NCBI GenBank assembly: GCA_964469915.1
Contig: CAYXZT010000001.1
Span: 29,938 to 92,337, forward strand
Source: an uncultured Gammaproteobacteria bacterium
GTDB lineage: Bacteria; Pseudomonadota; Gammaproteobacteria; Magnimaribacterales; D2472
Direction of reading: 5' to 3'
Length of the DNA: 62,400 nt
Within the stretch, counting starts at the first letter, position 1. The number at the start of each line of letters is the position of its first letter. The notes under the pieces are model-generated. The model was not told the DNA's origin. It did not search any database and saw nothing but the letters and a program-made list of their open reading frames with translations. This document shows, in pieces, positions 15,488 to 35,219 of this stretch. The translations under genes were made by a program, and so were the position numbers.

Positions 15488-16195
15488 TATATTCATACCC
15501 AATCTATCAGCAACTTGGTGATAGGATTCAACAACATCTCCAAGACCTTGCCTAAATCTATCTTTATCCATTTTTTTTAGGGTCTCCGAATCCCAAAGTC
15601 TACAGCCATCCGGAGTAAATTCGTCAGCAAGAAGAACTTTGTTATCAGCAACACCAAATTCAACCTTAAAATCAACTAATATTAATCCTGAATCAATAAA
15701 TAATTTGGAAAGAATCGTATTCACCTTGTATGTGAGAAGCTTCATTTGGTCAATTTGATCTTTTGTAGCCCACCCGAAAGATAAAATGTGTTCATCATTG
15801 ATTAGAGGATCACCTAACTCATCATCTTTTAGAAAAAATTCAAAAAGAGGACTTTCTAGAATAAGTCCATCTTCAGTTCCTAATCTTCTACAGATTGATC
15901 CAGATGCTCTATTTCTAATAACGCATTCTATAGGAAACATTGATAACTTATGTACCAAAGAGTCATTATTATTGAGAACCTCAATATGATGAGTTTCAAC
16001 GCCGTTCTTTTCTAAATGCTCCATAATGAAAGCATTGAATTGATTATTAACAGCGCCCTTTCCCATTAAAGCTTCTTTCTTTTTTCCGTCAAATGCTGAT
16101 GTATCATCACTAAAATGCATGACCAGCTGGTTTTCATTTGTTGTTGTAAATAAGGATTTTGCCTTACCTTTTGTTAATTCTTGTATTTTTTCCAT
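15476..16195 (-). CDS. purC: Phosphoribosylaminoimidazole-succinocarboxamide (SAICAR) synthase
   Basis: The 239-aa protein has the N-terminal GKAKSLFTT motif. The dapA-bamC-purC synteny matches E. coli. Confidence 0.95.
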   Translation of the reverse strand: MEKIQELTKGKAKSLFTTTNENQLVMHFSDDTSAFDGKKKEALMGKGAVNNQFNAFIMEHLEKNGVETHHIEVLNNNDSLVHKLSMFPIECVIRNRASGSICRRLGTEDGLILESPLFEFFLKDDELGDPLINDEHILSFGWATKDQIDQMKLLTYKVNTILSKLFIDSGLILVDFKVEFGVADNKVLLADEFTPDGCRLWDSETLKKMDKDRFRQGLGDVVESYHQVADRLGMNIKLD

Positions 16196-17178
16196 TAGCT
16201 TAAAGATTCGTTAATTTTTGATAATAATTCTTCAGAATTATCGATTTTACCATCTTTTGATCTTGCTCGAACATAGGTTTTATTATTTTTTTCCTCAATC
16301 GTTACTTCAAACTGTGCCTCATCATTAAATGTACTTTTACTACTTTCTGAATTGCTTCCAAAACCAAGGAAAGATAGAAAGCCGCCTTCTTCTTCACTGC
16401 TATAACTAACATAAAAAATCCCATTATTTCTATTTTTATCATTTGTAACAATTTCAGCAGACTCCATAGCCCTAGTAACTGATGACCATGCTCTATCAAA
16501 ATTAAGATTAAGCTCAATAACTGTTTGCCCATCCTCTGTGAATATTTTTGCTTTTTTCATTTCATTAAGATTCTGAGCTGCAAGCGAAGTTCCAGAAAAA
16601 CTATCAACAGATTCTGCAAAATAATTTACAAGATTTTCTAGCTCTGATTGAACAAGTTCAATGTTGCTAATAATATCTTGATCCTCTTTATTGACTAAAT
16701 TAAGGAAAATTTCAGTTGATGCCTCTTTAATGCCATGTTCTATTTTCATAACAAAAATTTTTGATTCATCAAAATTTATCTTAATTTCACCATTATCAGG
16801 ATTAGAGGCTAGCACATCATATTTAGAAGTTTCCCAATAACTTTTTGAGATTGGCCAAGAAGTAGATGGAAGTGTTTCTATGTATATCCACATCAACTCA
16901 CCAAGCCTTCGAAGCTGAACAGAACTATTACCAGAAGACGAAAAAATTTGTCTTGGTTTAGGTACATCTTGATTTTTTAGTTCATTTTCAATACTTAAAA
17001 CTGGATAGTGATTTTCCTTTGAGGGTATTGATAGTTCTTCAGGGATAGTAATATCAGTTTCAATTATTTCTTCTAGAAAATCATGTTCTGTGGTTGGAAA
17101 ATAGCCATCAGGTCCTGTTAAATAAGAACAAGAGGATAGTAAAAATATTGAAGAAACATATATTAATTTTTTATTCAT
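16195..17178 (-). CDS. bamC: Outer membrane protein assembly factor BamC (NlpB-like lipoprotein)
   Basis: A lipobox is present (LLSSCSY). It sits between dapA and purC, with an ATGA overlap with dapA. Sequence conservation is weak, so the call rests largely on synteny. Confidence 0.65.
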   Translation of the reverse strand: MNKKLIYVSSIFLLSSCSYLTGPDGYFPTTEHDFLEEIIETDITIPEELSIPSKENHYPVLSIENELKNQDVPKPRQIFSSSGNSSVQLRRLGELMWIYIETLPSTSWPISKSYWETSKYDVLASNPDNGEIKINFDESKIFVMKIEHGIKEASTEIFLNLVNKEDQDIISNIELVQSELENLVNYFAESVDSFSGTSLAAQNLNEMKKAKIFTEDGQTVIELNLNFDRAWSSVTRAMESAEIVTNDKNRNNGIFYVSYSSEEEGGFLSFLGFGSNSESSKSTFNDEAQFEVTIEEKNNKTYVRARSKDGKIDNSEELLSKINESLS

Positions 17179-19783: not shown

Positions 19784-21217
19784 ATGAAAATACTTAAATT
19801 ATTTACTATCTTCTTGTTATGCACCTTTGTTCAAGGTCAAACCTTTGAAAAGAAAGATATTTTATTACCTGAGCTTGGTGACAGAGTATCTGGTGCTGTA
19901 TCTTCTGATCAAGAAAGAGCAATCGGTAATGCTTTTTTAAAACAAATATATGCACAAGCAAGAACTATTTCTGATCCTTTAATATATGAATATACTGAAC
20001 TATTAATTTATAGGCTTTCAGAATACAGCCAAGTCCAGGACCGTTACTTCAATATCATCTTGATTGATGATAGCAATTTAAATGCATTCGCAGCTCCTGG
20101 AGGAATAATTGGTGTAAATGGTGGTTTATTTTTAAATGCTGATAATGAAGGTCAATTTGCATCAGTATTATCTCATGAGCTTGCTCATTTGAGCCAAAGG
20201 CATTTTGCTAGAAACGTTTTAAAATCGCAAGATTCTAATCTTGCATCAGCATTATTATTGGTTTCATCTATTGCAGTCGCTATTTTAAGCAATAATCCTC
20301 AAGCCATAGCGATGGCACCAGCTCTCATGCAGAGTGAAAGTTTGAGGTATAGCAGGCTTTTTGAAAGAGAGGCAGACAGAGTTGGATTTACAAATTTAAT
20401 TAAGGCGGGTTATAACCCTAGGTCAATGGGAGAGATGTTCGAAAATATGAATGACCTTAGAAGACTTTCAGGAGATATACCTCCAGAGTTTTTATTAACT
20501 CACCCACTTTCAACCTCTAGGATTAATGATGCATTTAATGCTGCAGAAAGCTTGTCTGAAATTGGAACTAAAAAAAATTCACTTGAATTTTCTCTTATAA
20601 AATCAAGATTACAAATTTACTATGAAAATATACCAGAAAATGCATTAAGATCATTTTCCTCTGCGTATGAAGAAAACCCAACTGACTCAAACCTATATGG
20701 CCTTGCACTGGCCAACAATAATATTGGTAAATTTAATTTAAGTATTAAACAAATTGATAAGTTAATACAAAAATATCCAAAAAATTTATTCTTAAATACC
20801 TCAAAGGTTGAAATTTTAAAAGAAGCCAAACAATATGATGAGGCGCTTCTTTTAGCTAATAAGTTTTTGGAAATATCTCCAAAGAATTTCCCATTATCCA
20901 TAACAAAGTCAAAGCTCCTTCTTGAAATGGGTCTCTACTTTAAGTCTGAAGAAATTGTTAGAGATCAAATTTTAAGAAGAAATTCTGATCCTGATTTATG
21001 GTTATTACTTTCAGAAATACAAAGAACCAGTAAAAATATTATAGGCTATCATCAAAGCAGGGCTGAGTATCTTGTCTTATTGGGAAGAGACGAGGAAGCC
21101 TTAAATCAGTTAGAGTTTGCATTAAAGCTTACTAAGAATAATTTTCAAGCTTCAGAAAGCATACTAACAAAAATTGTCCTCATAAAAGAGCGTATTAATA
21201 AATCTAGAAATCTTTAA
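19784..21217 (+). CDS. bepA: Periplasmic M48 metalloprotease/chaperone BepA (YfgC)
   Basis: It has a signal peptide, the HExxH motif HELAHLSQRH and a C-terminal TPR domain. Confidence 0.85.
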   Translation: MKILKLFTIFLLCTFVQGQTFEKKDILLPELGDRVSGAVSSDQERAIGNAFLKQIYAQARTISDPLIYEYTELLIYRLSEYSQVQDRYFNIILIDDSNLNAFAAPGGIIGVNGGLFLNADNEGQFASVLSHELAHLSQRHFARNVLKSQDSNLASALLLVSSIAVAILSNNPQAIAMAPALMQSESLRYSRLFEREADRVGFTNLIKAGYNPRSMGEMFENMNDLRRLSGDIPPEFLLTHPLSTSRINDAFNAAESLSEIGTKKNSLEFSLIKSRLQIYYENIPENALRSFSSAYEENPTDSNLYGLALANNNIGKFNLSIKQIDKLIQKYPKNLFLNTSKVEILKEAKQYDEALLLANKFLEISPKNFPLSITKSKLLLEMGLYFKSEEIVRDQILRRNSDPDLWLLLSEIQRTSKNIIGYHQSRAEYLVLLGRDEEALNQLEFALKLTKNNFQASESILTKIVLIKERINKSRNL

Positions 21218-22454
21218 GCCTTTCATTTTTAGAAATCTTCAGACCTGCTAGTGATAAAACTCCAGCTATAGGGATAGCAATCAGAGGCATAGTACTAAAC
21301 CCAACACTAAAAAATTTGCCAAGGCCTATAAAACTACTTCCAGATAAATCACCAAGCCTTGAAACAAATGTATCTATAAATACTGATGACTTATACCTAT
21401 CATTTTTTGCAAGCGTACTATAAACAGTTTCACGTGTTGGCTTATTAAGACCATACTCAAACAACCTTAGAGTAACTGTTGCAACTGCAACGATTGTTAT
21501 TGATGGCATAGTTCCATAAAGAACGAAAACAAGCATAAAGAGTAAGCCATATGTCATTAAAATTTTCTTAACTCCAAGGTACTTGATAAATATATTGGTT
21601 AAGAATAATTGCATTATTAATGTCAAAGGTGTGACGATTTGCTCCAATAAACTAAAAAATACAATTCTTTCCTCTGGATCTTGAGACCAACCATCTATAA
21701 TTGTAATTGCCGTCATCCAGTGAACAGTCATTAGTCCTGTCCATATCCATACGTATATTGCTATAGACCGAATTTCTGAAACTTTAATAACATTCTTTAT
21801 TCCATCTAAGCCACTTCCACCAACATTTTTATCTTTTTGATTGTTTTCGGCTTTCGTAGTTAGGTACCTACCTGTGATCATTGCCAAGGAAAGCAGAATA
21901 GTTGCTGATAAGCAAAAAAGCTCAAGCCCAAAATCATTGAAAGATGATGCAAACCTTTTAGATATTTCAGAACCAAAAAGTGCACCCAATGAACCTCCCG
22001 CCATTATGACTCCATAAAAACTTCTTGATTTTGCATTTCTATATATATTTATTATTAACACCCAGAAAATTGAAACAACAAAGAAAGAATATATGTTGCA
22101 CCAGATATAAAAAATTCTTCCAAGCCAAACCGAATCCCCTAAATCAAGAACTCTCCATGAGAAAAGAAAGAGTAATAAATTTAAAATTAAAAATGAATAA
22201 CAGTAAGTAATTATTTTCTTTAGATTAGATTTTGATGCAACCCACGCATAAACTGGATTAGCCAACAGCATTGCCAAAGCACCAAATGCTAAAAGCAAAG
22301 GCAATTCGTCAACGTTAGCTACTGCCATCTCATTACGAACAGGTCGAAGAATATACCATGATGATAAAACTAAAAAGAAAAGAAAACTCGCAAGCAGGGA
22401 GTCCTTTGTAAATACGGAGATAAATCTATTAAAAAAAATTTTAAGATTTTGCAT
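21204..22454 (-). CDS. Polytopic MFS-like transporter with an N-terminal signature resembling the ATP:ADP antiporter-like (COG3202/TLC-related) family; substrate unknown
   Basis: The 416-aa protein has about 11-12 predicted TM helices. The motif WYILRPVRNEMAV in TM1 recalls the YxLRPxRD/E signature of that family. Family assignment is from memory only. Confidence 0.45.
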   Translation of the reverse strand: MQNLKIFFNRFISVFTKDSLLASFLFFLVLSSWYILRPVRNEMAVANVDELPLLLAFGALAMLLANPVYAWVASKSNLKKIITYCYSFLILNLLLFLFSWRVLDLGDSVWLGRIFYIWCNIYSFFVVSIFWVLIINIYRNAKSRSFYGVIMAGGSLGALFGSEISKRFASSFNDFGLELFCLSATILLSLAMITGRYLTTKAENNQKDKNVGGSGLDGIKNVIKVSEIRSIAIYVWIWTGLMTVHWMTAITIIDGWSQDPEERIVFFSLLEQIVTPLTLIMQLFLTNIFIKYLGVKKILMTYGLLFMLVFVLYGTMPSITIVAVATVTLRLFEYGLNKPTRETVYSTLAKNDRYKSSVFIDTFVSRLGDLSGSSFIGLGKFFSVGFSTMPLIAIPIAGVLSLAGLKISKNERLKDF

Positions 22455-22474
22455 ACTGTATTATGCACTAAGAG

Positions 22475-22550
22475 TGGTGGGTCGCACAGGATTCGAACCT
22501 GTGACCAATTGGTTAAAAGCCAACTGCTCTACCAGCTGAGCTAGCGACCC
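22475..22550 (-). tRNA. tRNA-Lys (anticodon UUU), with encoded CCA
   Basis: Reverse complement: GGGTCGCTAGCTCAGCTGGTAGAGCAGTTGGCTTTTAACCAATTGGTCACAGGTTCGAATCCTGTGCGACCCACCA. Acceptor stem GGGTCGC/GCGACCC, D stem GCTC/GAGC, anticodon loop CTTTTAA, T stem ACAGG/CCTGT with TTCGAAT loop. Confidence 0.95.
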
Positions 22551-22574
22551 ACGGTTATGCATAAAAAAGTGTGA

Positions 22575-23225
22575 TTATTCCATATTTTTCAATAACTGCA
22601 AGGCCAAAGATGAAGCAGTATCATTTGGGTATTCTCTTACAACGAAATTATATTTCTCTTTTGCTTTAGTTAGCTCATTCTTCTTAAGAAATATGTCACC
22701 CATTTTTTTATGAGCTAGGGGAACTCTATAGTGTTCGGGGTAGGATAAGATCAGCTCCATAAAAAAATTTTGAGAAGCATCTAAATTATTTTGAATAAAA
22801 GAAATCTCTCCAAGCCAAAAGTAAGATATTGCCTTCTTATCACTATCATTAAAGTTTTCAATAAAATATGAAAAAAGAGTAAAAGCTTTTTCTATGTCTT
22901 GATCCTCAAGAGCTTTCACAGCCCCCTCAAAGACATCTTCTTTGCTTTGAACATCTTCCATACCTTTAAATCTCAGGTTGCCTGTCAGAGGAAGTGTGTT
23001 AGGTGTATTTATTTCATCTACAGAAACTGACTCTTTGATAAGTTTTTGAATAAGATACTCTTGGGATTCAACTTTATTTCTTAAATCTGCAATCTCAACT
23101 TCAAGTTCTTGAATTTTAAGAAATAATATATCTTCTGGTAAGGTTTCTGTGTCATCAGCATGAGCTGCATATGCTGAAAAAAAAAGAACAAATAAAAATG
23201 AAGGTGCTATTAATAACTCTTTCAT
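22575..23225 (-). CDS. cpoB: Cell division coordinator CpoB (YbgF)
   Basis: It has a signal peptide, an N-terminal coiled coil and a C-terminal TPR domain. It is the last gene of the tol-pal cluster. Confidence 0.8.
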   Translation of the reverse strand: MKELLIAPSFLFVLFFSAYAAHADDTETLPEDILFLKIQELEVEIADLRNKVESQEYLIQKLIKESVSVDEINTPNTLPLTGNLRFKGMEDVQSKEDVFEGAVKALEDQDIEKAFTLFSYFIENFNDSDKKAISYFWLGEISFIQNNLDASQNFFMELILSYPEHYRVPLAHKKMGDIFLKKNELTKAKEKYNFVVREYPNDTASSLALQLLKNME

Positions 23226-23227
23226 TT

Positions 23228-23731
23228 TTAATTAATTTCTACTCTCCTATTTTTTGCATAACTTACTTCATCATTACCTGATGCCAACGGTCTTTCCTCA
23301 CCATAGCTTTTAACTGATATTCGTGATGGTGTAATTCCGTTTAACAAAAAGTAGTTTCTAACTGATTCTGCTCTTCTTTGACCAAGTGCTAGGTTGTATT
23401 CTCTTGTACCTCTTTCATCTGCATGACCAGCTAAAATTATTTTAAGTTCAATGTTTGCATTCATAACAGACACAACACTTTTAAGAGTTTGAATTGATTT
23501 GGAGGTCAAATTGTAGCTATCGAATTCAAAAAAAACCGTTGCATTAGCAAAAATAGCTTTTGTTTCATAGTCTAAATCTTTTACTTCAACAACAGAAGCT
23601 TCAACAGTTTTAATTCCGCCATCATAAACCCTCTCCTCGGTGACGTTCATACTTGAACATGATGATAGAAATATTATAAATGCAGATGCAAATAAAAAAT
23701 TTTGAATACCTTTGCTATTTATTATTGACAT
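23228..23731 (-). CDS. pal: Peptidoglycan-associated lipoprotein Pal
   Basis: Lipobox LSSCSS and an OmpA-like domain ending in NRRVEIN. An AGGAG SD lies upstream. Confidence 0.92.
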   Translation of the reverse strand: MSIINSKGIQNFLFASAFIIFLSSCSSMNVTEERVYDGGIKTVEASVVEVKDLDYETKAIFANATVFFEFDSYNLTSKSIQTLKSVVSVMNANIELKIILAGHADERGTREYNLALGQRRAESVRNYFLLNGITPSRISVKSYGEERPLASGNDEVSYAKNRRVEIN

Positions 23732-23746
23732 AAAATCTCCTTGTTA

Positions 23747-25021
23747 TTACCTTAAAAAACCTGACCACGCTGGCTCCCTTACTTCACCTTTTTTGGCAGG
23801 AAGTCTAAATCTAGCACCGCTGAGTGTAAGTCCTGATAGCAGACTTTCACCGTTTTCAGTTACAGCATAGATTATCACATTACCGTTAGGAGAAATACTA
23901 GGAGATTCATCTAATTTGGACTCAGTTAATGGCCTAATAAAGTTTTCATTAAAATACTTAAGAGCTATTTTGAAATCATTATTAGACCTGTGAACAAATA
24001 TTATCCCATCACCGTTTTTAAGATAAGATCCTTTTGCATTATAGTTGCCTTCAAATGTAATTCTTTTGGGTTTTGAATTAAATCTACTAAGTTTGATTTC
24101 ATACAACTGCGGTGACCCAGATCTGCCAGAGGTAAACATGATACTTGATCCGTCTGGAGACCATGATGATTCAGTATCTATTGAATAATGATTTGTTAAT
24201 CTTGTTAAATTGTTATTTTTTAGATTAAGAATATATATTTCTGCATTTCCGTCTTGATACATTGTCAAAGATAGAAAATTTCCATTTGGCGACCATGCAG
24301 GTGAGCTTATTTGTTTTGTGTTCTGTATCGCAACCCTTCTCTTTCCAGAAGATATATTTTGTATATATACCCTTGCTATTCCAGTCTCAAAGGAGACATA
24401 TGCAATTTCTTTTGAATCAGGAGACCATGCAGGTGAAATAATAGGTTCATAGCTTTTTAAAAGTATCTGCTCATTAGCCCCATCTGCATCAGCAACTACA
24501 AGCTGATAAAGTGACTTATTATTTTCTTCTTGCTCAGATACATACAGAATTTTTGTTGAAGCAACACCTTTTAAACCAGTAACTTCTTCATAAATTCCAT
24601 CACTTATATAATGAGCTAATTGTTTAATTTTATTTGGTATGCCTAAGACTTTTGATGTTCTAATTTTATTTTCGTTTAAGACGCTAAAAATTTGATACGA
24701 GACTGATAAATTAAATTGATCTTCTGAATCAAGAGCACCTATTACAATATAATCAATATTAAGTAATTTAAAATCGTTAAAATTTATCTCTTCCTCGCTC
24801 TTGGGAGAAGATAACAATTTTTCTTTACTTATTATTTTAAATTCTCCAGTTCTATTAAGATCATTGTTAACTATTTCAGTTATTTGTTTAGCAATTATTT
24901 CGTCACCATCAAAATCTAGCAAAGCAATCACATAGGGATCATCTGATCCTTGAGTTATTTCTAAAACAAGCTCAGCAAAGATTAATTGTGGTAAAAGAAA
25001 TATTACTAGTATTTTTTTCAT
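23747..25021 (-). CDS. tolB: Tol-Pal system beta-propeller protein TolB
   Basis: Signal peptide and repeated propeller motifs SPAWSPDS / SPAWSPNG / SWSPDG. ATGA overlap with tolA. Confidence 0.95.
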   Translation of the reverse strand: MKKILVIFLLPQLIFAELVLEITQGSDDPYVIALLDFDGDEIIAKQITEIVNNDLNRTGEFKIISKEKLLSSPKSEEEINFNDFKLLNIDYIVIGALDSEDQFNLSVSYQIFSVLNENKIRTSKVLGIPNKIKQLAHYISDGIYEEVTGLKGVASTKILYVSEQEENNKSLYQLVVADADGANEQILLKSYEPIISPAWSPDSKEIAYVSFETGIARVYIQNISSGKRRVAIQNTKQISSPAWSPNGNFLSLTMYQDGNAEIYILNLKNNNLTRLTNHYSIDTESSWSPDGSSIMFTSGRSGSPQLYEIKLSRFNSKPKRITFEGNYNAKGSYLKNGDGIIFVHRSNNDFKIALKYFNENFIRPLTESKLDESPSISPNGNVIIYAVTENGESLLSGLTLSGARFRLPAKKGEVREPAWSGFLR

Positions 25022-25635
25022 GATGGGTTAAAGGTAATAACAATTTTTTTAAAATTGTCTGCATATAAATTGTTAGGAATTTTATTATAAAAATTAAATG
25101 ATTCAACTCTATTAACAGCTTTCATTGCCGAATTATCGAATCTAATATTGCCACTACTTTTTATTAGACTTACAGAAATTATTCTTCCATTTCTATTAAC
25201 AACCAATCTTAGATCACAGACTAACCCATCTTGTATATTTTTAGGTTTTACCCATGCCGATTCAACCATATTTATAATCATGCTGCTTATTTGATTAATC
25301 TCTTTTTCTGAACTAGATGCTATCTCAGCTTTATCTATTTTAATGAGATCATTTATGCTTATATTAATCTCATCTGTGTTAGTTGGTTTGATGTCTTGTT
25401 CTATATTTATGTCTTTATCAACTACCTGATTCACACTTGGCACTTTCACAGCTTCTGGTAACTTTTTAGGTTTTATGATTTCCTCTTCAAAAATAAGATT
25501 TACATCTACTGTCTGGCTTAGAACTGGACGAATTTGTTTTTCGGAATAAAAGAAGTCCATTAAATACAGAATAATTAGTGCATGAATTAAAAATGAAAAA
25601 AAAGATGCTATTAGATATTCAGATTTAACTTCCAT
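25018..25635 (-). CDS. tolA: Tol-Pal system protein TolA (short form)
   Basis: It has an N-terminal TM helix, a short charged linker and a TonB/TolA-type C-terminal domain. It sits between tolR and tolB. Length is only 205 aa. Confidence 0.7.
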   Translation of the reverse strand: MEVKSEYLIASFFSFLIHALIILYLMDFFYSEKQIRPVLSQTVDVNLIFEEEIIKPKKLPEAVKVPSVNQVVDKDINIEQDIKPTNTDEINISINDLIKIDKAEIASSSEKEINQISSMIINMVESAWVKPKNIQDGLVCDLRLVVNRNGRIISVSLIKSSGNIRFDNSAMKAVNRVESFNFYNKIPNNLYADNFKKIVITFNPS

Positions 25636-26047
25636 AACCAGTGGTAACTATTCCTATTTTTGATATTCCTATACTTTGTATTGCTGCCATAGCTTTTGCC
25701 ACACTATCAAAAGTTACATCCTTGTCACTTTGAAAGACCACCTCAATATCAGGATTGGCATCAAAAATTACCATCGACTTTCTTTTTAGTTCATCAATAC
25801 TAATGGGAAGAACTTCTTCTCCGATATTTAAATAATATTTACCTTTGCTATCTATTGATATAACCAGCGGTTCATTTTGAACACTCATTTTAGTGGTATC
25901 TGTTTTAGGTAGGTTTACTTCAATACCTTGAATTAGTAATGGTGAAAGCACCATAAAGATAATGAGCAATACCAACATCACATCGATATAAGGCACAACA
26001 TTGATTTCAGCTTTAAGAGTTTTCTTCTTTGCTAATCTATAAATCAT
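25625..26047 (-). CDS. tolR: Tol-Pal system protein TolR (ExbD family)
   Basis: The 140-aa protein has the ExbD/TolR N-terminus (EINVVPYIDVMLVLLIIFMV). ATGA overlap with tolQ. Confidence 0.9.
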   Translation of the reverse strand: MIYRLAKKKTLKAEINVVPYIDVMLVLLIIFMVLSPLLIQGIEVNLPKTDTTKMSVQNEPLVISIDSKGKYYLNIGEEVLPISIDELKRKSMVIFDANPDIEVVFQSDKDVTFDSVAKAMAAIQSIGISKIGIVTTGYGS

Positions 26048-26718
26048 TTATTTTTTATAGATTGTTTATAAAAAATACTCGCCAACTCTTCAGAAAAAAT
26101 TAAGGTGGATTGACTCATAGTTTCAAGCTCAGAGGTGTATTTATTAAAAGCAATAACTGCTGGTATAGCGGCGAATAAACCCATAGCAGTAGCTACAAGT
26201 GCCTCAGATATGCCTGGAGCTACTGCATTGATTGTTGCTTGCGTAGCATCAGATAAGCCTTGAAATGAGGTCATAATACCCCAGACCGTCCCCAAAAGAC
26301 CAACATAAGGGCTAACAGATCCCACGTTAGCTAAAAATGGTAGATGCTTATTCATCTCCTCTTCATCTGCTGCAATAGCTACCCTCATACATCTATTTAT
26401 TCCTTCTAAATCTAGCTCAGTGATGGTCTCGTTTGGGTTTAATTGTTTAAACTCCTTAAAAGCACTATGAAAAACACCCAGAGAGCCATAAAGTAAAGTG
26501 CTCTCAGCTTCAATTTCATCAAATAAGGTATTTAGGTCCTCGCCATTCCAAAACCTATTGTGGAAACTTGTATTAATATCTTTGATTTTTTTATAGAAGT
26601 TATATCTCTCAACTATAACTATCCATGTTAATAGTGACGCAAGAAGTAAAAGCATCATTACAATTTTTACAACTATTCCAGCTTCAAGAAAGAGATTTAA
26701 TACAGAAATATCATTCAT
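26044..26718 (-). CDS. tolQ: Tol-Pal system protein TolQ (MotA/ExbB family)
   Basis: A 224-aa, three-TM protein with the conserved C-terminal channel helices (GLLGTVWGIM...ISEALVATAMGL). Confidence 0.93.
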   Translation of the reverse strand: MNDISVLNLFLEAGIVVKIVMMLLLLASLLTWIVIVERYNFYKKIKDINTSFHNRFWNGEDLNTLFDEIEAESTLLYGSLGVFHSAFKEFKQLNPNETITELDLEGINRCMRVAIAADEEEMNKHLPFLANVGSVSPYVGLLGTVWGIMTSFQGLSDATQATINAVAPGISEALVATAMGLFAAIPAVIAFNKYTSELETMSQSTLIFSEELASIFYKQSIKNK

Positions 26719-27138
26719 TTAATTTTCCTCATTTAGTAACAATAATAAATCATCGGGCAAAGGTTTTGGTTTTTTTGATTTAATGTTAATTAAGCATACT
26801 TCAACCAAAGCATTGCACAGCTCTCTTGTGTCATTTAAATCAACTATATGTTGATTAAATATTAAGCGGGCATTAGATTTTTTTTCAATTAAAGACTTTA
26901 CTGCCAAAGCGTCTCCAAGCCTACCTGGAGAAAGAAAATTTGTCTCAATTCGTTTAACAACAAATACAAGATTTTCTTCTCTTAGTTTTTTTTGAGAAAT
27001 ATTATTATATTCAAGAAATTCCGATCGAGCTCTTTCAAAGAATTTAATATAATTTGCATGATATACAAAACCTTGGAAGTCTGTGTCCTCTACATATACT
27101 TTTAATTGTAAATCCTTAGGCTTGAAAGTTGTTTTCAT
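26719..27138 (-). CDS. ybgC: Tol-Pal-associated acyl-CoA thioesterase YbgC (4HBT hotdog fold)
   Basis: The motif YVEDTDFQGFVYHANY parallels E. coli YYEDTDAGGVVYHARY. I start at the ATG at 27138 (MKTTFKPKDL...); the track's longer N-terminus has no homology support. Confidence 0.88.
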   Translation of the reverse strand: MKTTFKPKDLQLKVYVEDTDFQGFVYHANYIKFFERARSEFLEYNNISQKKLREENLVFVVKRIETNFLSPGRLGDALAVKSLIEKKSNARLIFNQHIVDLNDTRELCNALVEVCLINIKSKKPKPLPDDLLLLLNEEN

Positions 27139-27541
27139 GAAGCTCAATATCTTTTTGAAATAATTCCAGCAAGATTTGGATAAAGTCAGGCCACAACAAA
27201 TCAACTGTTACTAAAGTGTTTTTAATTTCTTTATTTATCGACGAGGCCAAAATTCTTACCTTAATTGGCCTATTATTAAATTTATAAACCAATGCCGGTT
27301 TTAAATCTGCTCCTTTTGAAGATGCTAAGACTTGATCCCACCAATCAGGCCTTGGCTCAGCACCTGTTCCATAAGCTTTGCATTCTATGCACCAATTACC
27401 TAGCATAAGATCTGGGAGTTCTTTTGTTCTAGTTTGCTCAAGTATTCTTTTAACTGGGTTTGTTAAGTTAAGATCATTAATAAGCGCATTTGCAATTTGT
27501 CTTTCAAAAGTTGCGCCTTTATTTCGTGAGTTTATAGTCAA
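27116..27541 (-). CDS. Minimal PD-(D/E)XK nuclease, Hjc / VRR-NUC-like (putative Holliday junction resolvase)
   Basis: The 141-aa protein has KGATFERQIANAL (helix-1 Glu), then ELPDL, then WCIECK (D...ExK). This lines up with my recollection of Pyrococcus Hjc: KGAQAERELIKLL...VDL...CIEVK. The TTG start lies 3 nt after the yebC stop, and the 3' end overlaps ybgC by 23 nt. Confidence 0.6.
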   Translation of the reverse strand: MTINSRNKGATFERQIANALINDLNLTNPVKRILEQTRTKELPDLMLGNWCIECKAYGTGAEPRPDWWDQVLASSKGADLKPALVYKFNNRPIKVRILASSINKEIKNTLVTVDLLWPDFIQILLELFQKDIELHENNFQA

Positions 27542-27544
27542 TAT

Positions 27545-28282
27545 TTACTCTTTTAATTCAAAATTATCTGGAAATTCTGCATTAGTATGCACTTCTTGTA
27601 CATCATCAAGCTCGTCCATAAAGTCCATGATCTTTAAAACTTTTTCAGACATTTCTTGATCAATAGCTACTGATGTCTCTGCTCTCAAAGTAAGCTCTGC
27701 GTTAATATTATCTATACTATTATTTTTTAATGATTCAAGTACATTGCTTAAATTAGTACTTGAAGTAATGATTTCAAAATACTCTCCTTCATCGATAAGA
27801 TCGTCTGCACCGGACTCTAATACAATATCCATCAACTCTTCTTCTGAGGTACCTTTTGAAATATGAATTATTCCAATTTTATTAAAAAGATATGATACAG
27901 ATCCATCTGTACCAAGATTACCTCCAAATTTGGAAAAAGCATGACGCACATCAGAGACAGTTCTATTTCTATTATCTGACATAGTTTCTACCAATATTGC
28001 AACACCACCTGGCCCATACCCTTCAAAGATAATTTCTTCTAATGCGCCTGTTTCACCAGTACCAGAGCCTTTTTCTATAGCTCTTTTAATATTGTCTTTT
28101 GGCATATTTGCTGCATTAGCCTTATCTAAGGCCAATCTTAATCTAGGATTATCGTCAGGGTCGGGTCCGCCCTTTGCAGCAACAGTTATCTCTCTGATAA
28201 CTTTAGTCCAAACCTTGCCTCTCGATGCATCTTGACGAGCCTTTCTATGCTTAATATTCGCCCATTTGGAATGTCCTGCCAT
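27545..28282 (-). CDS. yebC: YebC/PmpR family DNA-binding regulator / translation factor
   Basis: Hallmark N-terminus MAGHSKWANIKHRKA in a 245-aa protein. Confidence 0.95.
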   Translation of the reverse strand: MAGHSKWANIKHRKARQDASRGKVWTKVIREITVAAKGGPDPDDNPRLRLALDKANAANMPKDNIKRAIEKGSGTGETGALEEIIFEGYGPGGVAILVETMSDNRNRTVSDVRHAFSKFGGNLGTDGSVSYLFNKIGIIHISKGTSEEELMDIVLESGADDLIDEGEYFEIITSSTNLSNVLESLKNNSIDNINAELTLRAETSVAIDQEMSEKVLKIMDFMDELDDVQEVHTNAEFPDNFELKE

Positions 28283-28284
28283 AT

Positions 28285-30051
28285 CTACTCTTCCTTGTGA
28301 GTACTTATAATTTTTAGTTCTTCTAGTTGAGAGTTATCAACTTTACTTGGAGCATCAGTTAATAAACAAGTTGCGCTCTGGGTTTTAGGAAATGCAATTA
28401 CATCTCTAATATTTGTAGTATCCGTTATGAGCATAACAATCCTATCAAGACCAAATGCTATCCCTCCATGAGGAGGACATCCTGATGAGAGAGCTTTCAA
28501 TAAGAAGCCAAACTTACTATCAGCTTCTTCTTCTGTAATATTTAATATACTGAATATTGTTTTTTGCATTTCAGTGTCAAAGACTCTTAATGAGCCCCCT
28601 CCAATTTCATATCCATTTAGTACAACATCATATGCATGAGCTAATGCGGTATCTGCTGAATCAGTTAACTCTTTAGTTGAGCACTTTGGAAGAGTAAATG
28701 GGTGGTGAAGTGATGTAAGATTGCCCTCACTATTTCTTTCAAACATTGGGAAGTTTACAACCCAGCATGGGGCCCATTTAGATGAATACATATCTAAATC
28801 GTCACCTATTTTTTTAATTAGGCTACTCATGCTTAAATTTACAACAGAGCTTTTACCTGCCCCAAAGAATAGAAGATCATCATTTTGTAAATCTAATTCT
28901 GATACGATAGATTCTATAGTCTCACTTTTAAGGAACTTAAGAATTGGTGACTGCAAGCCATTTTTGATATCACTTTTATCATTGACTTTTATATACGCCA
29001 GCCCCTTAGCTCCAAGTTTTGAGACAAACTTAGTATATTCATCAATTTTTCCCCTCGATAAAGAATTACCACCTGGTATCTTTAGAGCAACAACCCTAGA
29101 TTTACTATCTTTTGCAGGGTCAGAGAAAACTTTAAATTCTTCATTTTGAACTAACTCAGAAACCTCTACTAACTTTAAAGGTATTCTTAAGTCGGGCTTA
29201 TCACATCCATAATCTCTCATAGAATCATGCCAATCTAATATAGGAAAAGTCTCTAATTCATCACCACAAAACTTATGGACAAGCTCTTTGACCATATTTT
29301 CGCCAATTTCCATAATATATTCTTGATCTACAAAAGAGGCCTCGATATCTATTTGAGTAAATTCAGGTTGGCGATCTGCTCTAAGATCTTCATCTCTAAA
29401 ACATCTGGCAACTTGATAATACTTATCTAAGCCTCCCATCATCAGCAACTGTTTGAATAACTGAGGAGACTGAGGCAATGCAAAGAAATTACCAGATTGA
29501 ACTCTGCTTGGAAGAATAAAATCTCTTGCGCCCTCTGGTGTTGCCTTCGTTAAAATTGGCGTTTCAATTTCATGAAATTCATTAGAATCTAAATAGTTTC
29601 TTATTGTTGAACTTATTTTTGATCTTGTAACAATTCTATGATTCATCTCAGGTCTTCTTAAATCTAACACCCTATTCTTTAAGCGAACATCTTCATTAAC
29701 ATCCTGATAATCATCAAGTGGGAAAACTGGGGTGACTGCCTTACTTAGAATAACTATATTTTCAGCATTAAGCTCTACTTCTCCAGTAGTCATATTTTTA
29801 TTTACTGTTCCTTCAAGCCTTTGTTTAACTGTACCTGATATCTTTACAACAAATTCATTTCTTAAGGTTTCTGCTATCTTGAATGACTTAGAATTATCAG
29901 GGTTTATAACTACCTGACAAATTCCCTTAATATCTCTAACATCTAAAAATATAACACCACCATGATCACGTCTTTTGTGTATCCAGCCACAAATTGTTAT
30001 ATCTTCATCAAGATTCTTGGATGTAATTTCTCCACAATAGTGAGATCTCAT
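28285..30051 (-). CDS. aspS: Aspartate--tRNA ligase
   Basis: The 588-aa bacterial type has an N-terminal OB fold, class II motif 2 [18 protein letters not shown], and GGIAFGLDR in motif 3. Confidence 0.97.
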
Positions 30052-30064
30052 AATATTTCCTTAT

Positions 30065-30343
30065 TTATTTAGTAATCTTATCTTGTTTAGGCTCTTTCTT
30101 GGAGTCGGATGTTAAATTTTTTGATGATTTATTATCATTTGATGATAGATTTTTTTTATTTCCAGTTTTGAAATCAGTTTCATACCACCCTCCTCCTTTT
30201 AATCTAAATGATGGAGCAGATACCATTTTCAATAAACTTTCTTTGTTGCATTTTGGGCATAAAGTTTTTGGTTCATCACTGAACTTCTGAATTATCTCAA
30301 TTTCATGCTCACAATCTGAACATTTATAGTCATAAATCGGCAT
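30065..30343 (-). CDS. FmdB-family zinc-ribbon protein
   Basis: MPIYDYKCSDCEHEIE...CPKCNKE (CxxC...CxxC), followed by a low-complexity Lys/Ser tail. Confidence 0.8.
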   Translation of the reverse strand: MPIYDYKCSDCEHEIEIIQKFSDEPKTLCPKCNKESLLKMVSAPSFRLKGGGWYETDFKTGNKKNLSSNDNKSSKNLTSDSKKEPKQDKITK

Positions 30344-30405
30344 AAGTACTTAAAAAAAAGATAAAATTATAAACCATAAGGATTTATATAAAACAAATTA
30401 ATAAA

Positions 30406-31680
30406 ATGTTGTTCTCAAAACTATTACTACCGACACTTAAAGACGCACCAAAAGAAGCTGAGGTTATAAGCCATAAATTAATGCTCAGAGCTGGCATGGT
30501 AAGAAAAGTTGCTTCAGGAATATACACATGGCTTCCATTAGGTCTAAAAGTACTTAGAAAAATTGAAAACATTGTAAGGGAGGAAATGGATGCCTCAGGA
30601 GCACAAGAGGTTCTAATGCCTATGGTTCAACCTAAAGAATTGTGGAATGAAACAAATAGATGGGAAAAAATGGGTCCTGAGCTATTAAGAATTAAAGACA
30701 GACATGAAAGAGACTTCTGTTTAGGTCCAACACATGAGGAAGTTATAACTGATTTAATTAGAAACAATGTAAAAAGCTATAAAGAACTTCCACTAAATAT
30801 ATATCAAATCCAAACAAAATTTAGAGACGAGGTTAGACCAAGGTATGGAGTAATGAGAGGAAGAGAATTTTTAATGAAAGATTCCTATAGTTTTAATATT
30901 GATGAAGCATGCCTTCAGTCTACTTATCTAACTATGCGAAACACCTATAAAAATATTCTTGAAAGAATTGGATTAGATTATAAGATTGTTGCAGCGGACT
31001 CTGGTGCTATTGGAGGAGATACTTCTGAAGAATTCCATGTTCTTGCAGAAACTGGTGAGGATACAATTGCAATTAGTAGTGAATCTGAATTTGCAATCAA
31101 TACTGAGCTTCTTTTAAAAGAAGGAGAGGATATTTCATCATTGGAAGGTAAACCTTCTCCAGATGGAAAAGGCACTATCCAAATTAAAAAAGGGATCGAA
31201 GTTGGTCATATATTTCAATTAGGAAAAGTTTATGCCGAAGATATGAAAGCTAATGTACTAAATAATGAAGGTAAAGCTTCAACTCTTCATATGGGATGCT
31301 ATGGAGTTGGAGTCTCAAGGTTGGTGGCTGCAGCTATTGAGCAAAACAATGATGATAAGGGAATTATATGGCCTCATAGTATTTCACCATTTGATATAAA
31401 TATTATTGCAATTGGTTATGAAAAAGATCAACAGATTGCAGAGGCCTCAATAAAGCTTTATAAGGATCTTCAAGAGATGGGATACGAGGTTCTTCTTGAT
31501 GACCGTAAAGATGGTTATGGGACTAAAATGAAAGATTCAGAACTTATAGGTATACCTCTAAATATTGTAATTGGTAAGCAATATATTGAAACAAATGAGG
31601 TTGAGTTAAAATCAAGGAGTGGAGATTCTTCTTTAAATGACATTTCTAATTTAAAAACAATATTGGATTTTTTTAAGTAG
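30406..31680 (+). CDS. proS: Proline--tRNA ligase, bacterial-type core lacking the INS editing domain
   Basis: Motif 2 [25 protein letters not shown] and motif 3 [17 protein letters not shown] lie only about 135 aa apart. Total length is 424 aa, against about 570 aa for E. coli ProRS. Confidence 0.93.
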
Positions 31681-34202: not shown

Positions 34203-35219
34203 CTACTTTGTAGATTTTGCTTTGTTTGCTATATATTCTTTTCGTATTTCTTCAAGCAGATTTTCACGAATTTTTGCATTTTCTTTTAGGAATAATCCTG
34301 CCTTAGCTTTTCCTTGACCAATAGTTTCACCATTTAATTTATAAAACGCTCCAGACTTTTCTATTAAACCTAATTTATTACCATAGTCTAATATTTCGCC
34401 CTCAGAATTTATTCCTTGGCCATACATTATTTGAAATTCAGCTTGCTTGAATGGAGGTGAAACTTTATTTTTAACAACTTTTACTCTTGTTTCGTTGCCC
34501 ATTATTTCATCTCCCTCCTTAACAGCACCAATTCTTCTAATATCTAGTCTTACTGAAGAGTAAAACTTTAAAGCATTACCACCTGTAGTTGTTTCAGGAC
34601 TTCCAAACATTACACCAATCTTCATTCTAATTTGGTTAATGAAAACTACAGTTGCTCCAGATCTTTGAATATTACCTGTTATTTTTCTTAAAGCTTGGGA
34701 CATCAATCTTGCCTGCAAACCAACATGATGATCACCCATTTCACCTTCAATTTCTGCTCTTGGAACCAACGCAGCAACAGAATCAATAATAACTAAATCC
34801 ACACTTTTTGATTTAACAAGCATGTCAGCAACTTCAAGAGCTTGCTCACCTGTATCTGGCTGAGAAAGTAAAAGTTCATCAACATTTACGCCTAGTTTTT
34901 CTGCATATTGAGGATCAAGAGCATGTTCCGCATCTATAAATGCACATGTCCCGCCATCTTTCTGGCACTGAGCAATTATTTGAAGTGTCAATGTTGTCTT
35001 ACCTGATGATTCAGGTCCATATATTTCAGTTACCCTACCTTTAGGAATACCACCAATACCAAGAGCGATATCTAGACCCACTGAGCCTGTAGAAATTGAT
35101 GGGATATCTAACATTTCTCTATCCCCCATTCTCATAACGGTACCTTTACCGAAATGGCTATCTATATCTGCAAGTGTATCTTTTAGTGTTTTATTACTTG
35201 TATCTTTTGATTTTGGCAT
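34203..35219 (-). CDS. recA: Recombinase RecA
   Basis: Walker [14 protein letters not shown], and the protein aligns along its full length with E. coli RecA. An AGGAG SD lies 6 nt upstream of the ATG. Confidence 0.98.

Follow-up and report, generated by a model that had tools for sequence, protein, structure and literature searches.

This work concerns a stretch of 62,400 nucleotides (called the window here) from contig CAYXZT010000001.1 of an uncultured gammaproteobacterium of the SAR86 order (Magnimaribacterales), and in particular the 141-amino-acid gene between yebC and ybgC, which is referred to as X. The genes around X lie in the order aspS, yebC, X, ybgC, tolQ, tolR, tolA, tolB, pal, cpoB and tRNA-Lys, as seen from translations, ARAGORN and the Pfam domains found in the syntenic genes of six closely related contigs, L001-L006. 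The same order had been given in the earlier note on this DNA, which proposed that X is a small nuclease that occupies the place of ruvC, ruvA and ruvB. The features of the locus are as follows.

27116-27541, minus strand: X, a predicted PD-(D/E)XK nuclease of PF24608 (PDDEXK_15) with an Hjc-like fold, the proposed Holliday junction resolvase of the SAR86 lineage (open reading frame, Pfam, PHROG 244, AlphaFold, Foldseek and hhalign)
27545-28282, minus strand: yebC (TACO1/YebC family), directly upstream of X (51% identity to E. coli YebC by tblastn; Pfam TACO1_YebC_N/Transcrip_reg on the syntenic gene)
28285-30051, minus strand: aspS, aspartate-tRNA ligase, upstream of yebC (Pfam tRNA-synt_2 and GAD on the syntenic gene; synteny)
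26719-27138, minus strand: ybgC-type 4HBT thioesterase gene, with which the tol-pal cluster opens (Pfam 4HBT on the syntenic gene, which is called from the same ATG)
26044-26718, minus strand: tolQ (open reading frame; Pfam MotA_ExbB on the syntenic gene)
25625-26047, minus strand: tolR (open reading frame; Pfam ExbD on the syntenic gene)
25018-25635, minus strand: tolA (open reading frame; Pfam TonB_2 on the syntenic gene)
23747-25021, minus strand: tolB (open reading frame; Pfam TolB_N/PD40 on the syntenic gene)
23228-23731, minus strand: pal (open reading frame; Pfam OmpA on the syntenic gene)
22575-23225, minus strand: cpoB (open reading frame; Pfam TPR on the syntenic gene)
22475-22550, minus strand: tRNA-Lys (UUU), the end of the conserved block (ARAGORN)

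The list of open reading frames and the translation place X tightly between its neighbors, exactly as had been described before. It starts with TTG after a gap of three nucleotides (ATA) from the yebC stop codon, which ends at 27545, so that the junction on the minus strand reads ...AAAGAG TAA ATA TTG ACT... The 3' end of X overlaps ybgC, whose ATG is at 27138, by 23 nucleotides. Relatives of X begin at the same residue, with ATG in the loci L008 and L019 and TTG in L001, and the start position is therefore real and not an artefact of the open reading frame finder. In every locus that carries X the distance from yebC to X is between -4 and +3 nucleotides, whereas the median distance from yebC to ruvC is about 59 nucleotides. 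X does abut yebC, but the suggestion that it is translationally coupled to yebC "as ruvC normally is" overstated the precedent. A scan of positions 22400-30500 for promoters and terminators was uninformative; promoter-like sites were fewer than in shuffled sequences and no terminators were found at the gene junctions.

Family membership and conserved residues

X is a predicted PD-(D/E)XK nuclease and a member of PF24608, which Pfam describes as "Phage putative PDDEXK endonuclease". The match has a score of 38.3 bits against a cut-off of 27 (E = 1.6e-9) and covers residues 4-108 of X and model positions 1-123 of 164. It is the sole Pfam match, with no other family found by hmmscan at E <= 10. 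X also belongs to PHROG 244 (E = 6.7e-13). No NCBIfam model matches X, and a single-sequence search against the PDB sequences returned only a chance match, CFAP107. The databases hold 592 homologues of X, and PF24608 is the precomputed domain in all X homologues among the matches listed. HMMER, run exhaustively over 1.84 billion cluster representatives, found only 235 relatives at E <= 1e-3, so the family is a small one.

The motifs KGATFERQ, PDL and IECK are present in X. In an alignment of 64 diverse homologues, which are 27-63% identical to X, five residues are invariant: G9, E13, D44, E53 and K55. Such agreement greatly exceeds what chance would produce. Ten others (R6, K8, R32, L34, Q36, Y57, W67, W68, Q70 and P82) are at least 90% conserved. 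The four putative catalytic residues, E13, D44, E53 and K55, whose conservation among homologues had been put forward as a check on the nuclease assignment, are thus the same in 64 of 64 sequences, and they are invariant within the SAR86 clade too. Their codons are located as follows.

27503-27505, minus strand: E13, the acidic residue of helix 1, aligned with the E of AQAERE in Pyrococcus furiosus Hjc (64-homologue alignment and Hjc alignment)
27410-27412, minus strand: D44, the "PD" aspartate, aligned with the D of VDL in Hjc (invariant; Hjc alignment)
27377-27385, minus strand: E53-C54-K55, the (D/E)XK motif, aligned with E-V-K of IEVK in Hjc (E53 and K55 invariant; Hjc alignment)

This conservation bears on the possibility that X no longer has catalytic activity and instead serves YebC as a DNA-binding or regulatory partner. 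Such a role could explain why X adjoins yebC so tightly, and YebC has been proposed, in silico only, to regulate ruvABC (Zhang et al. 2012, PMC3403352). The link between yebC and X is a genomic association and proves nothing about function, and the invariance of all four residues, both in the SAR86 clade and across the family, makes a non-catalytic X very improbable.

Several other family assignments were considered. The label "VRR-NUC-like" that had been attached to X is not supported, as no Pfam match to VRR-NUC (PF08774) was obtained and the top 50 structural matches include neither VRR-NUC nor FAN1. RecU (PF03838) has no Pfam match either and appears neither among the PDB profile matches nor among the top 50 fold matches. 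RusA (PF05866) gives no Pfam match; the name "RusA-like" given to PHROG 244 and to some phage records looks like a misnomer. X has no Pfam match to RuvC (PF02075) and could be at most its functional analogue. The Pfam Hjc model (PF01870) does not detect X in the hmmscan search at E <= 10.

Similarity to archaeal Hjc

The similarity of X to archaeal Hjc emerges from profile and structure comparisons. When the 64-member family alignment was used as a profile against all PDB sequences, archaeal Hjc accounted for 6 of the 12 matches, the best being 1gef (E = 0.065) and 4tkd (E = 0.12). The profile alignment pairs KGaafERe, gDL and iEcK of the family with RKGAQAERE, VDL and IEVK of P. furiosus Hjc; the Hjc strings quoted when the similarity was first pointed out agree with this protein (PDB 1gef). 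An hhalign comparison of the family profile with the P. furiosus Hjc segment gave a probability of 90% (E = 1.5e-6) and placed E13, D44, E53 and K55 on the E, D and E-x-K of Hjc. The aligned residues are the catalytic residues of Hjc, E9, D33, E46 and K48.

An AlphaFold2 model of X was built on 45 sequences and has a mean predicted local distance difference test score (pLDDT) of 85.1 and a predicted template modelling score (pTM) of 0.82. In the model E13 is located in a helix (residues 5-24), D44 just before a strand (45-47), and E53 and K55 in the next strand (50-57), followed by a helix (65-74) and two further strands (81-88 and 94-98). This order of elements fits the PD-(D/E)XK core, and X thus has the E ... 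D ... (D/E)XK motif on the alpha-beta-beta-beta-alpha-beta core by which nucleases of this kind were recognized here.

The first 15 Foldseek matches of the model in the PDB are all archaeal Hjc proteins, from Archaeoglobus, Pyrococcus and Sulfolobus tokodaii, with E-values of 4e-3 to 8e-2, probabilities of 0.75-1.0 (at least 0.85 in 14 of the 15) and template modelling (TM) scores of 0.40-0.58. No RecU, T7 endonuclease I or VRR-NUC entry is among the top 50 PDB matches. Among the predicted viral structures of BFVD the best matches are unnamed phage proteins with TM scores of about 0.8, and several further ones are named Holliday junction resolvase or Hjc. The profile searches, hhalign and Foldseek on the AlphaFold model all bear out the description of X as an Hjc-like PD-(D/E)XK mini-nuclease. 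The nearest folds are those of archaeal Hjc, but the family itself is the phage family PF24608 and is distinct from Pfam Hjc.

The slot after yebC in gammaproteobacteria

A scan of a genome collection with the YebC protein of the window gave 80 gammaproteobacterial loci, which were classified by tblastn according to what follows yebC. The next gene is ruvC in 73 of them and X in four, three of which are labelled SAR86 cluster bacterium and one the unclassified Gammaproteobacteria metagenome-assembled genome (MAG) SZUA-1006. At one locus (L064) ybgC follows directly, and at the remaining two nothing was detected. The complete order yebC-ruvC-ruvA-ruvB-(ybgC)-tolQ is present in 52 loci, with aspS upstream in 44 of the 52, and these span Pseudomonas, Marinobacter, Cellvibrio, Hahella, Pseudohongiella, Porticoccaceae, Chromatiales and others. 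The Pseudomonas arrangement given in the earlier note thus really exists, and it is common.

The four genome loci were supplemented with nine metagenomic or MAG contigs that carry X homologues of 54-88% identity. The order aspS-yebC-X-(ybgC)-tolQ is found in all 13 of these SAR86-type loci, some of which have diverged to 47-62% identity. By tblastn, none of the 13 contains ruv genes, and no locus has both X and ruv. X occupies the same position as the older genes do in relatives and never occurs together with them there, which is the pattern expected of a displacement. These observations support the proposed in-place, non-orthologous replacement. The YebC protein of the most distant genome locus with X is 53-58% identical to that of the window, which is as far as the Pseudomonadales, and the replacement thus dates to the base of the SAR86 order or deep within it.

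The locus without either gene is in a Methylococcaceae MAG (L064:8001-9857), where ybgC-tolQ comes directly after yebC, and both ruvCAB and X are missing from the interval. The slot can thus become empty without a replacement, and the ruv genes are presumably elsewhere in that genome.

Absence of ruv genes in the SAR86 lineage

With RuvA, RuvB and RuvC from the annotated E. coli K-12 record as tblastn queries, no match was found anywhere in the 62.4-kb window at E <= 1e-5, in agreement with the absence of RuvC and RuvAB claimed before. The sensitivity of the search is adequate, as ruvA, ruvB and ruvC are all picked up by the identical queries in 60-73 other gammaproteobacterial loci. The lineage-wide absence of ruvABC is taken from the literature. 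HIMB1674 is a cultured SAR86 isolate with a closed genome (Ramfelt et al. 2024, PMC11582366). Table S1 of that paper scores "No" in HIMB1674 for RuvA_N (PF01330), RuvA_C (PF07499), RuvB_C (PF05491), RuvC (PF02075) and RadA (TIGR00416), and also for MutS domains I, II and IV and for Rep. In the genome columns of Table S1 that were examined, the RuvA, RuvB, RuvC, RadA, MutS and Rep markers score 0 in nearly all environmental SAR86 genomes listed. Ramfelt et al. reported 27 of 28 markers as systematically absent in 732 environmental SAR86 genomes (PMC11582366). The few genome columns that score 1 for Ruv markers look like non-SAR86 or mixed genomes, because most of them also carry many of the other "missing" markers. 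At the level of the lineage, and within the columns examined, a canonical ruvCAB set elsewhere in the genome, which together with a lack of junction cleavage would have reduced X to an ordinary small nuclease, is thus missing from the closed HIMB1674 genome and from almost all listed SAR86 genomes. Other markers scored as missing in HIMB1674 are SspB, the two-subunit glycyl-tRNA synthetase and Ffh/FtsY (PMC11582366 Table S1), and some of the absences in the table may be effects of model thresholds.

The presence of recA shows that the lineage has kept strand exchange. RecF, RecO and RecR are scored "Yes" in HIMB1674, as is YqgF (PF03652) (PMC11582366 Table S1), and recA is located in the window:

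34203-35219, minus strand: recA (translation; Pfam RecA_N/RecA_C on the syntenic gene in L001-L005)

With recA and recFOR both retained, the lineage forms joint molecules that need resolution. Elsewhere RuvAB and RuvC/RecU are near-universal in recA-positive bacteria, and RuvAB was found to be absent only from recA-less genomes plus Wigglesworthia and Aquifex (Rocha et al. 2005, PMC1193525). The words "ruv", "resolvase" and "nuclease" are not mentioned in the main text of PMC11582366, and a full-text literature search with ruvC, ruvB and Holliday junction found no paper on a replacement of ruvCAB in SAR86.

Phage relatives and selection on X

Members of PF24608 in phages sit in replication and recombination modules. 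In a temperate marine element the PDDEXK_15 gene comes after genes for an integrase, a YqaJ exonuclease, an ERF recombinase, DnaB/primase, a RecA-dependent nuclease and DUF3310. In Roseobacter phage CRP-406 it adjoins genes for a second PD-(D/E)XK exonuclease-like protein, SSB and primase/helicase, and in Rosemountvirus it is downstream of the DNA primase gene. A scan of viral contigs with the X protein found only relatives at 43% identity or less. The exact X protein of the window is present on 492 contigs of marine assemblies, and near-identical copies are on contigs of 1.19-1.30 Mb.

A marine podovirus-like phage (L091:6001-6420 and L092:3693-4112) carries a PDDEXK_15 gene, P0315, whose product is 50% identical to X. 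The phage also encodes an endolysin, a virion structural protein and a DNA ejection protein, and its best relatives are Phage DSL-LC04, for which the host is given as Gammaproteobacteria, and Pelagibacter phage HTVC027P. P0315 is placed among structural genes and not in a replication module, and in a neighbor-joining tree it nests inside the SAR86 chromosomal clade. The phage could be a SAR86 phage with a captured host gene or a relative of the donor.

X itself has the composition of its neighbors, with 34.5% G+C overall and 26.8% at third codon positions (GC3), in a window of 32.7% G+C. Synonymous sites are saturated (proportion of synonymous differences, pS, 0.63-0.79), so the ratio of nonsynonymous to synonymous rates (dN/dS) could not be computed and the proportion of nonsynonymous differences (pN) was compared with that of neighboring genes. 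Against L001, pN is 0.095 for X, 0.119 for yebC, 0.149 for aspS, 0.150 for tolQ and 0.188 for tolB, and at the level of the order the value for X is about equal to those of yebC and aspS. X evolves as slowly as aspS and yebC and has a native composition.

Could X instead be a selfish or defence nuclease, such as a mobile-element remnant, a restriction-like enzyme or a toxin, that destroyed the ruv operon and has no role in recombination? PF24608 is mainly phage-borne, and the nesting of the marine phage copy within the SAR86 clade would also fit this explanation. It is nevertheless improbable. No PADLOC model matches X, and its surroundings hold neither a methylase or antitoxin that could be its partner nor a mobile-element gene. 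Genes of the latter kind were not seen anywhere in the window, which is ordinary core chromosome (sdhAB, der, bamB, hisS, ispG, rlmN, iscS, bepA, tol-pal, recA, eno, pyrG, alr, dnaB and ftsA). The composition of X is fully native. Purifying selection on X at least as strong as on the housekeeping neighbors, with a position fixed across the order, would be unexpected for a decaying or selfish insert.

Proposed role of X in recombination

The explanation that we favor, and consider reasonably likely, is that X is a domesticated phage-derived Hjc-like PD-(D/E)XK endonuclease that resolves Holliday junctions throughout the SAR86 order. The ancestor of the order would have held aspS-yebC-ruvC-ruvA-ruvB-ybgC-tolQRAB-pal-cpoB, and X would have replaced the three ruv genes in place. 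X would be expressed from the yebC transcript, and the spacing suggests that ribosomes terminating on yebC may go on to read X. By analogy with Hjc, X would form a homodimer with specificity for junctions and bind the four-way DNA junctions that RecA makes. With a metal ion bound by E13, D44 and E53, and with K55, it would place paired nicks in opposing strands, leaving nicked duplexes that could be sealed by ligase. X probably carries out the junction-cutting step for the whole of an abundant ocean lineage.

X can replace only the cutting step, that of RuvC. Of the three known branch-migration motors of bacteria, two are gone with the loss of RadA and RuvAB. Because RuvAB and RadA are absent, the candidates for branch migration are RecG and spontaneous or RecA-driven migration.

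Several points weigh against this role. The similarity to Hjc is remote, with PDB profile E-values of 0.065-1.1, Foldseek E-values of 4e-3 or worse, TM scores of about 0.5 and no Pfam Hjc match, and PD-(D/E)XK folds support many other activities. In the absence of RuvAB and RadA some other means would be needed to move junctions to cleavable positions, and dissolution by a helicase plus a topoisomerase is another possible route for junctions. The "Holliday junction resolvase" labels on relatives of X are automated annotations; a full-text literature search found no paper that mentions PF24608 or PDDEXK_15, and no biochemical or genetic data on any member of the family were found in the literature. 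The absence of ruvABC rests on a marker table for the lineage, the search in this organism having covered 62.4 kb. YqgF/RuvX, whose Pfam name is "Holliday junction resolvase", is present in HIMB1674 (PMC11582366 Table S1).

These points leave room for X to be a phage-derived structure-specific or general nuclease with another housekeeping task, for example at stalled or reversed forks, flaps, D-loops, or damaged or foreign DNA. X would then have come to lie in the ruv slot as a by-product of the deletion and insertion that removed ruvCAB, and junctions would be handled otherwise or be rare. In addition to the breadth of the fold and the presence of YqgF in HIMB1674, this explanation gains from the empty slot at L064 and from the typical promiscuity of phage resolvases on branched DNA (PMC3864405). 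Against it, every one of the closest structures is a junction resolvase, and the catalytic residues of X match theirs one for one in the alignments. X is in the exact slot in every SAR86-type locus across order-level divergence and changes as slowly as aspS and yebC, and the lineage retains recA and recFOR yet is without RuvC. We regard a different housekeeping function as unlikely, although less so than the selfish and the non-catalytic explanations discussed above.

The proposal that X is the resolvase of SAR86 can be extended. The whole order may run RecA-dependent recombination without RuvAB, RuvC and RadA and rely on one phage-derived Hjc-like nuclease in the old ruvCAB slot, while marine phages still carry the gene and may exchange it. 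For this extended proposal the chances appear evenly balanced.

Other features of the window

Upstream of aspS the window has a prolyl-tRNA synthetase-like gene of 424 amino acids (30406-31680, plus strand; Pfam tRNA-synt_2b and HGTP_anticodon on the syntenic gene). E. coli ProS is about 570 amino acids long, and the gene in the window thus appears to be without the inserted editing domain. A 92-amino-acid zinc-ribbon protein with a lysine/serine-rich tail is encoded at 30065-30343 on the minus strand (Pfam Zn_ribbon_8 on the syntenic gene), and its gene is kept between proS and aspS in all SAR86 loci examined. Two open reading frames, of 327 amino acids (16195-17178, minus strand) and 416 amino acids (21204-22454, minus strand), have no NCBIfam match at E <= 1e-10; the latter corresponds to an L001 gene with a weak Pfam MFS_1 match. 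The related contig L002 (ERZ28548065 chicken_3 contig, 354 kb) is otherwise syntenic, but many of its genes, including aspS, proS, tolB and ybgC, are in fragments, while X is intact. The splitting most likely reflects frameshift errors of long-read assembly rather than pseudogenisation.

Comparison with known resolvases

Archaeal Hjc (PF01870; PDB 1gef, 2wcw, 2eo0 and 1hh1) is, like X, a small PD-(D/E)XK nuclease of about 120-140 amino acids. The two share the same order of motifs, with KGA..ER in helix 1, then D-L and E-x-K, and like X, Hjc stands alone in organisms without RuvAB. X differs from Hjc in having extra conserved elements, namely R32-x-L-x-Q, a W67-W68-x-Q helix and two C-terminal helices at 117-137. 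It is also bacterial and phage-borne rather than archaeal, and the link between them is visible only to profile and fold methods, with TM scores of about 0.5.

RecU of Firmicutes and Mollicutes is a similar case in that a PD-(D/E)XK resolvase displaces the RNase H-fold RuvC throughout a lineage (PMC1193525). However, the RecU lineages keep RuvAB, and RecU rarely adjoins ruvAB (PMC1193525), whereas in SAR86 ruvA and ruvB are gone and X is exactly in the ruvCAB position. RusA, a prophage resolvase that suppresses E. coli ruvABC mutants, is phage-derived and stand-alone like X and can substitute for the whole of RuvABC. This substitution, in the rus-1 suppressors of E. coli, reportedly depends on RecG. 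RusA has a different fold and belongs to a different family. Its substitution for RuvABC is that of a suppressor in the laboratory; X, in contrast, has become fixed in a natural lineage. PF24608/PHROG 244 has been described as a phage-borne, putative nuclease family, but its SAR86 branch is chromosomal, is part of a core operon and is under housekeeping-level constraint. What is new in relation to the known cases is that the displacement occurred in place, that ruvA and ruvB were lost along with ruvC, and that the result is fixed across a whole order of abundant free-living bacteria, and not in endosymbionts or laboratory suppressors.

Significance

The RuvAB and RuvC/RecU genes are used as markers of genome completeness, and up to now their loss in SAR86 has been visible only in the rows of a supplementary table of markers. 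A candidate replacement in the ruvCAB slot gives a testable model of how streamlined SAR86 cells finish recombination and restart forks, and provides a first physiological hypothesis for the PF24608 family of phage nucleases. It would be the second bacterial case, after RecU, in which RuvC is displaced by a PD-(D/E)XK resolvase, here with the branch-migration motor lost too. The proposed role has a bearing on the recombination rates and population structure of a key ocean lineage. If the extended proposal is true, the end-game of recombination in these bacteria would resemble that of archaea or phages more than the canonical bacterial resolvasome.

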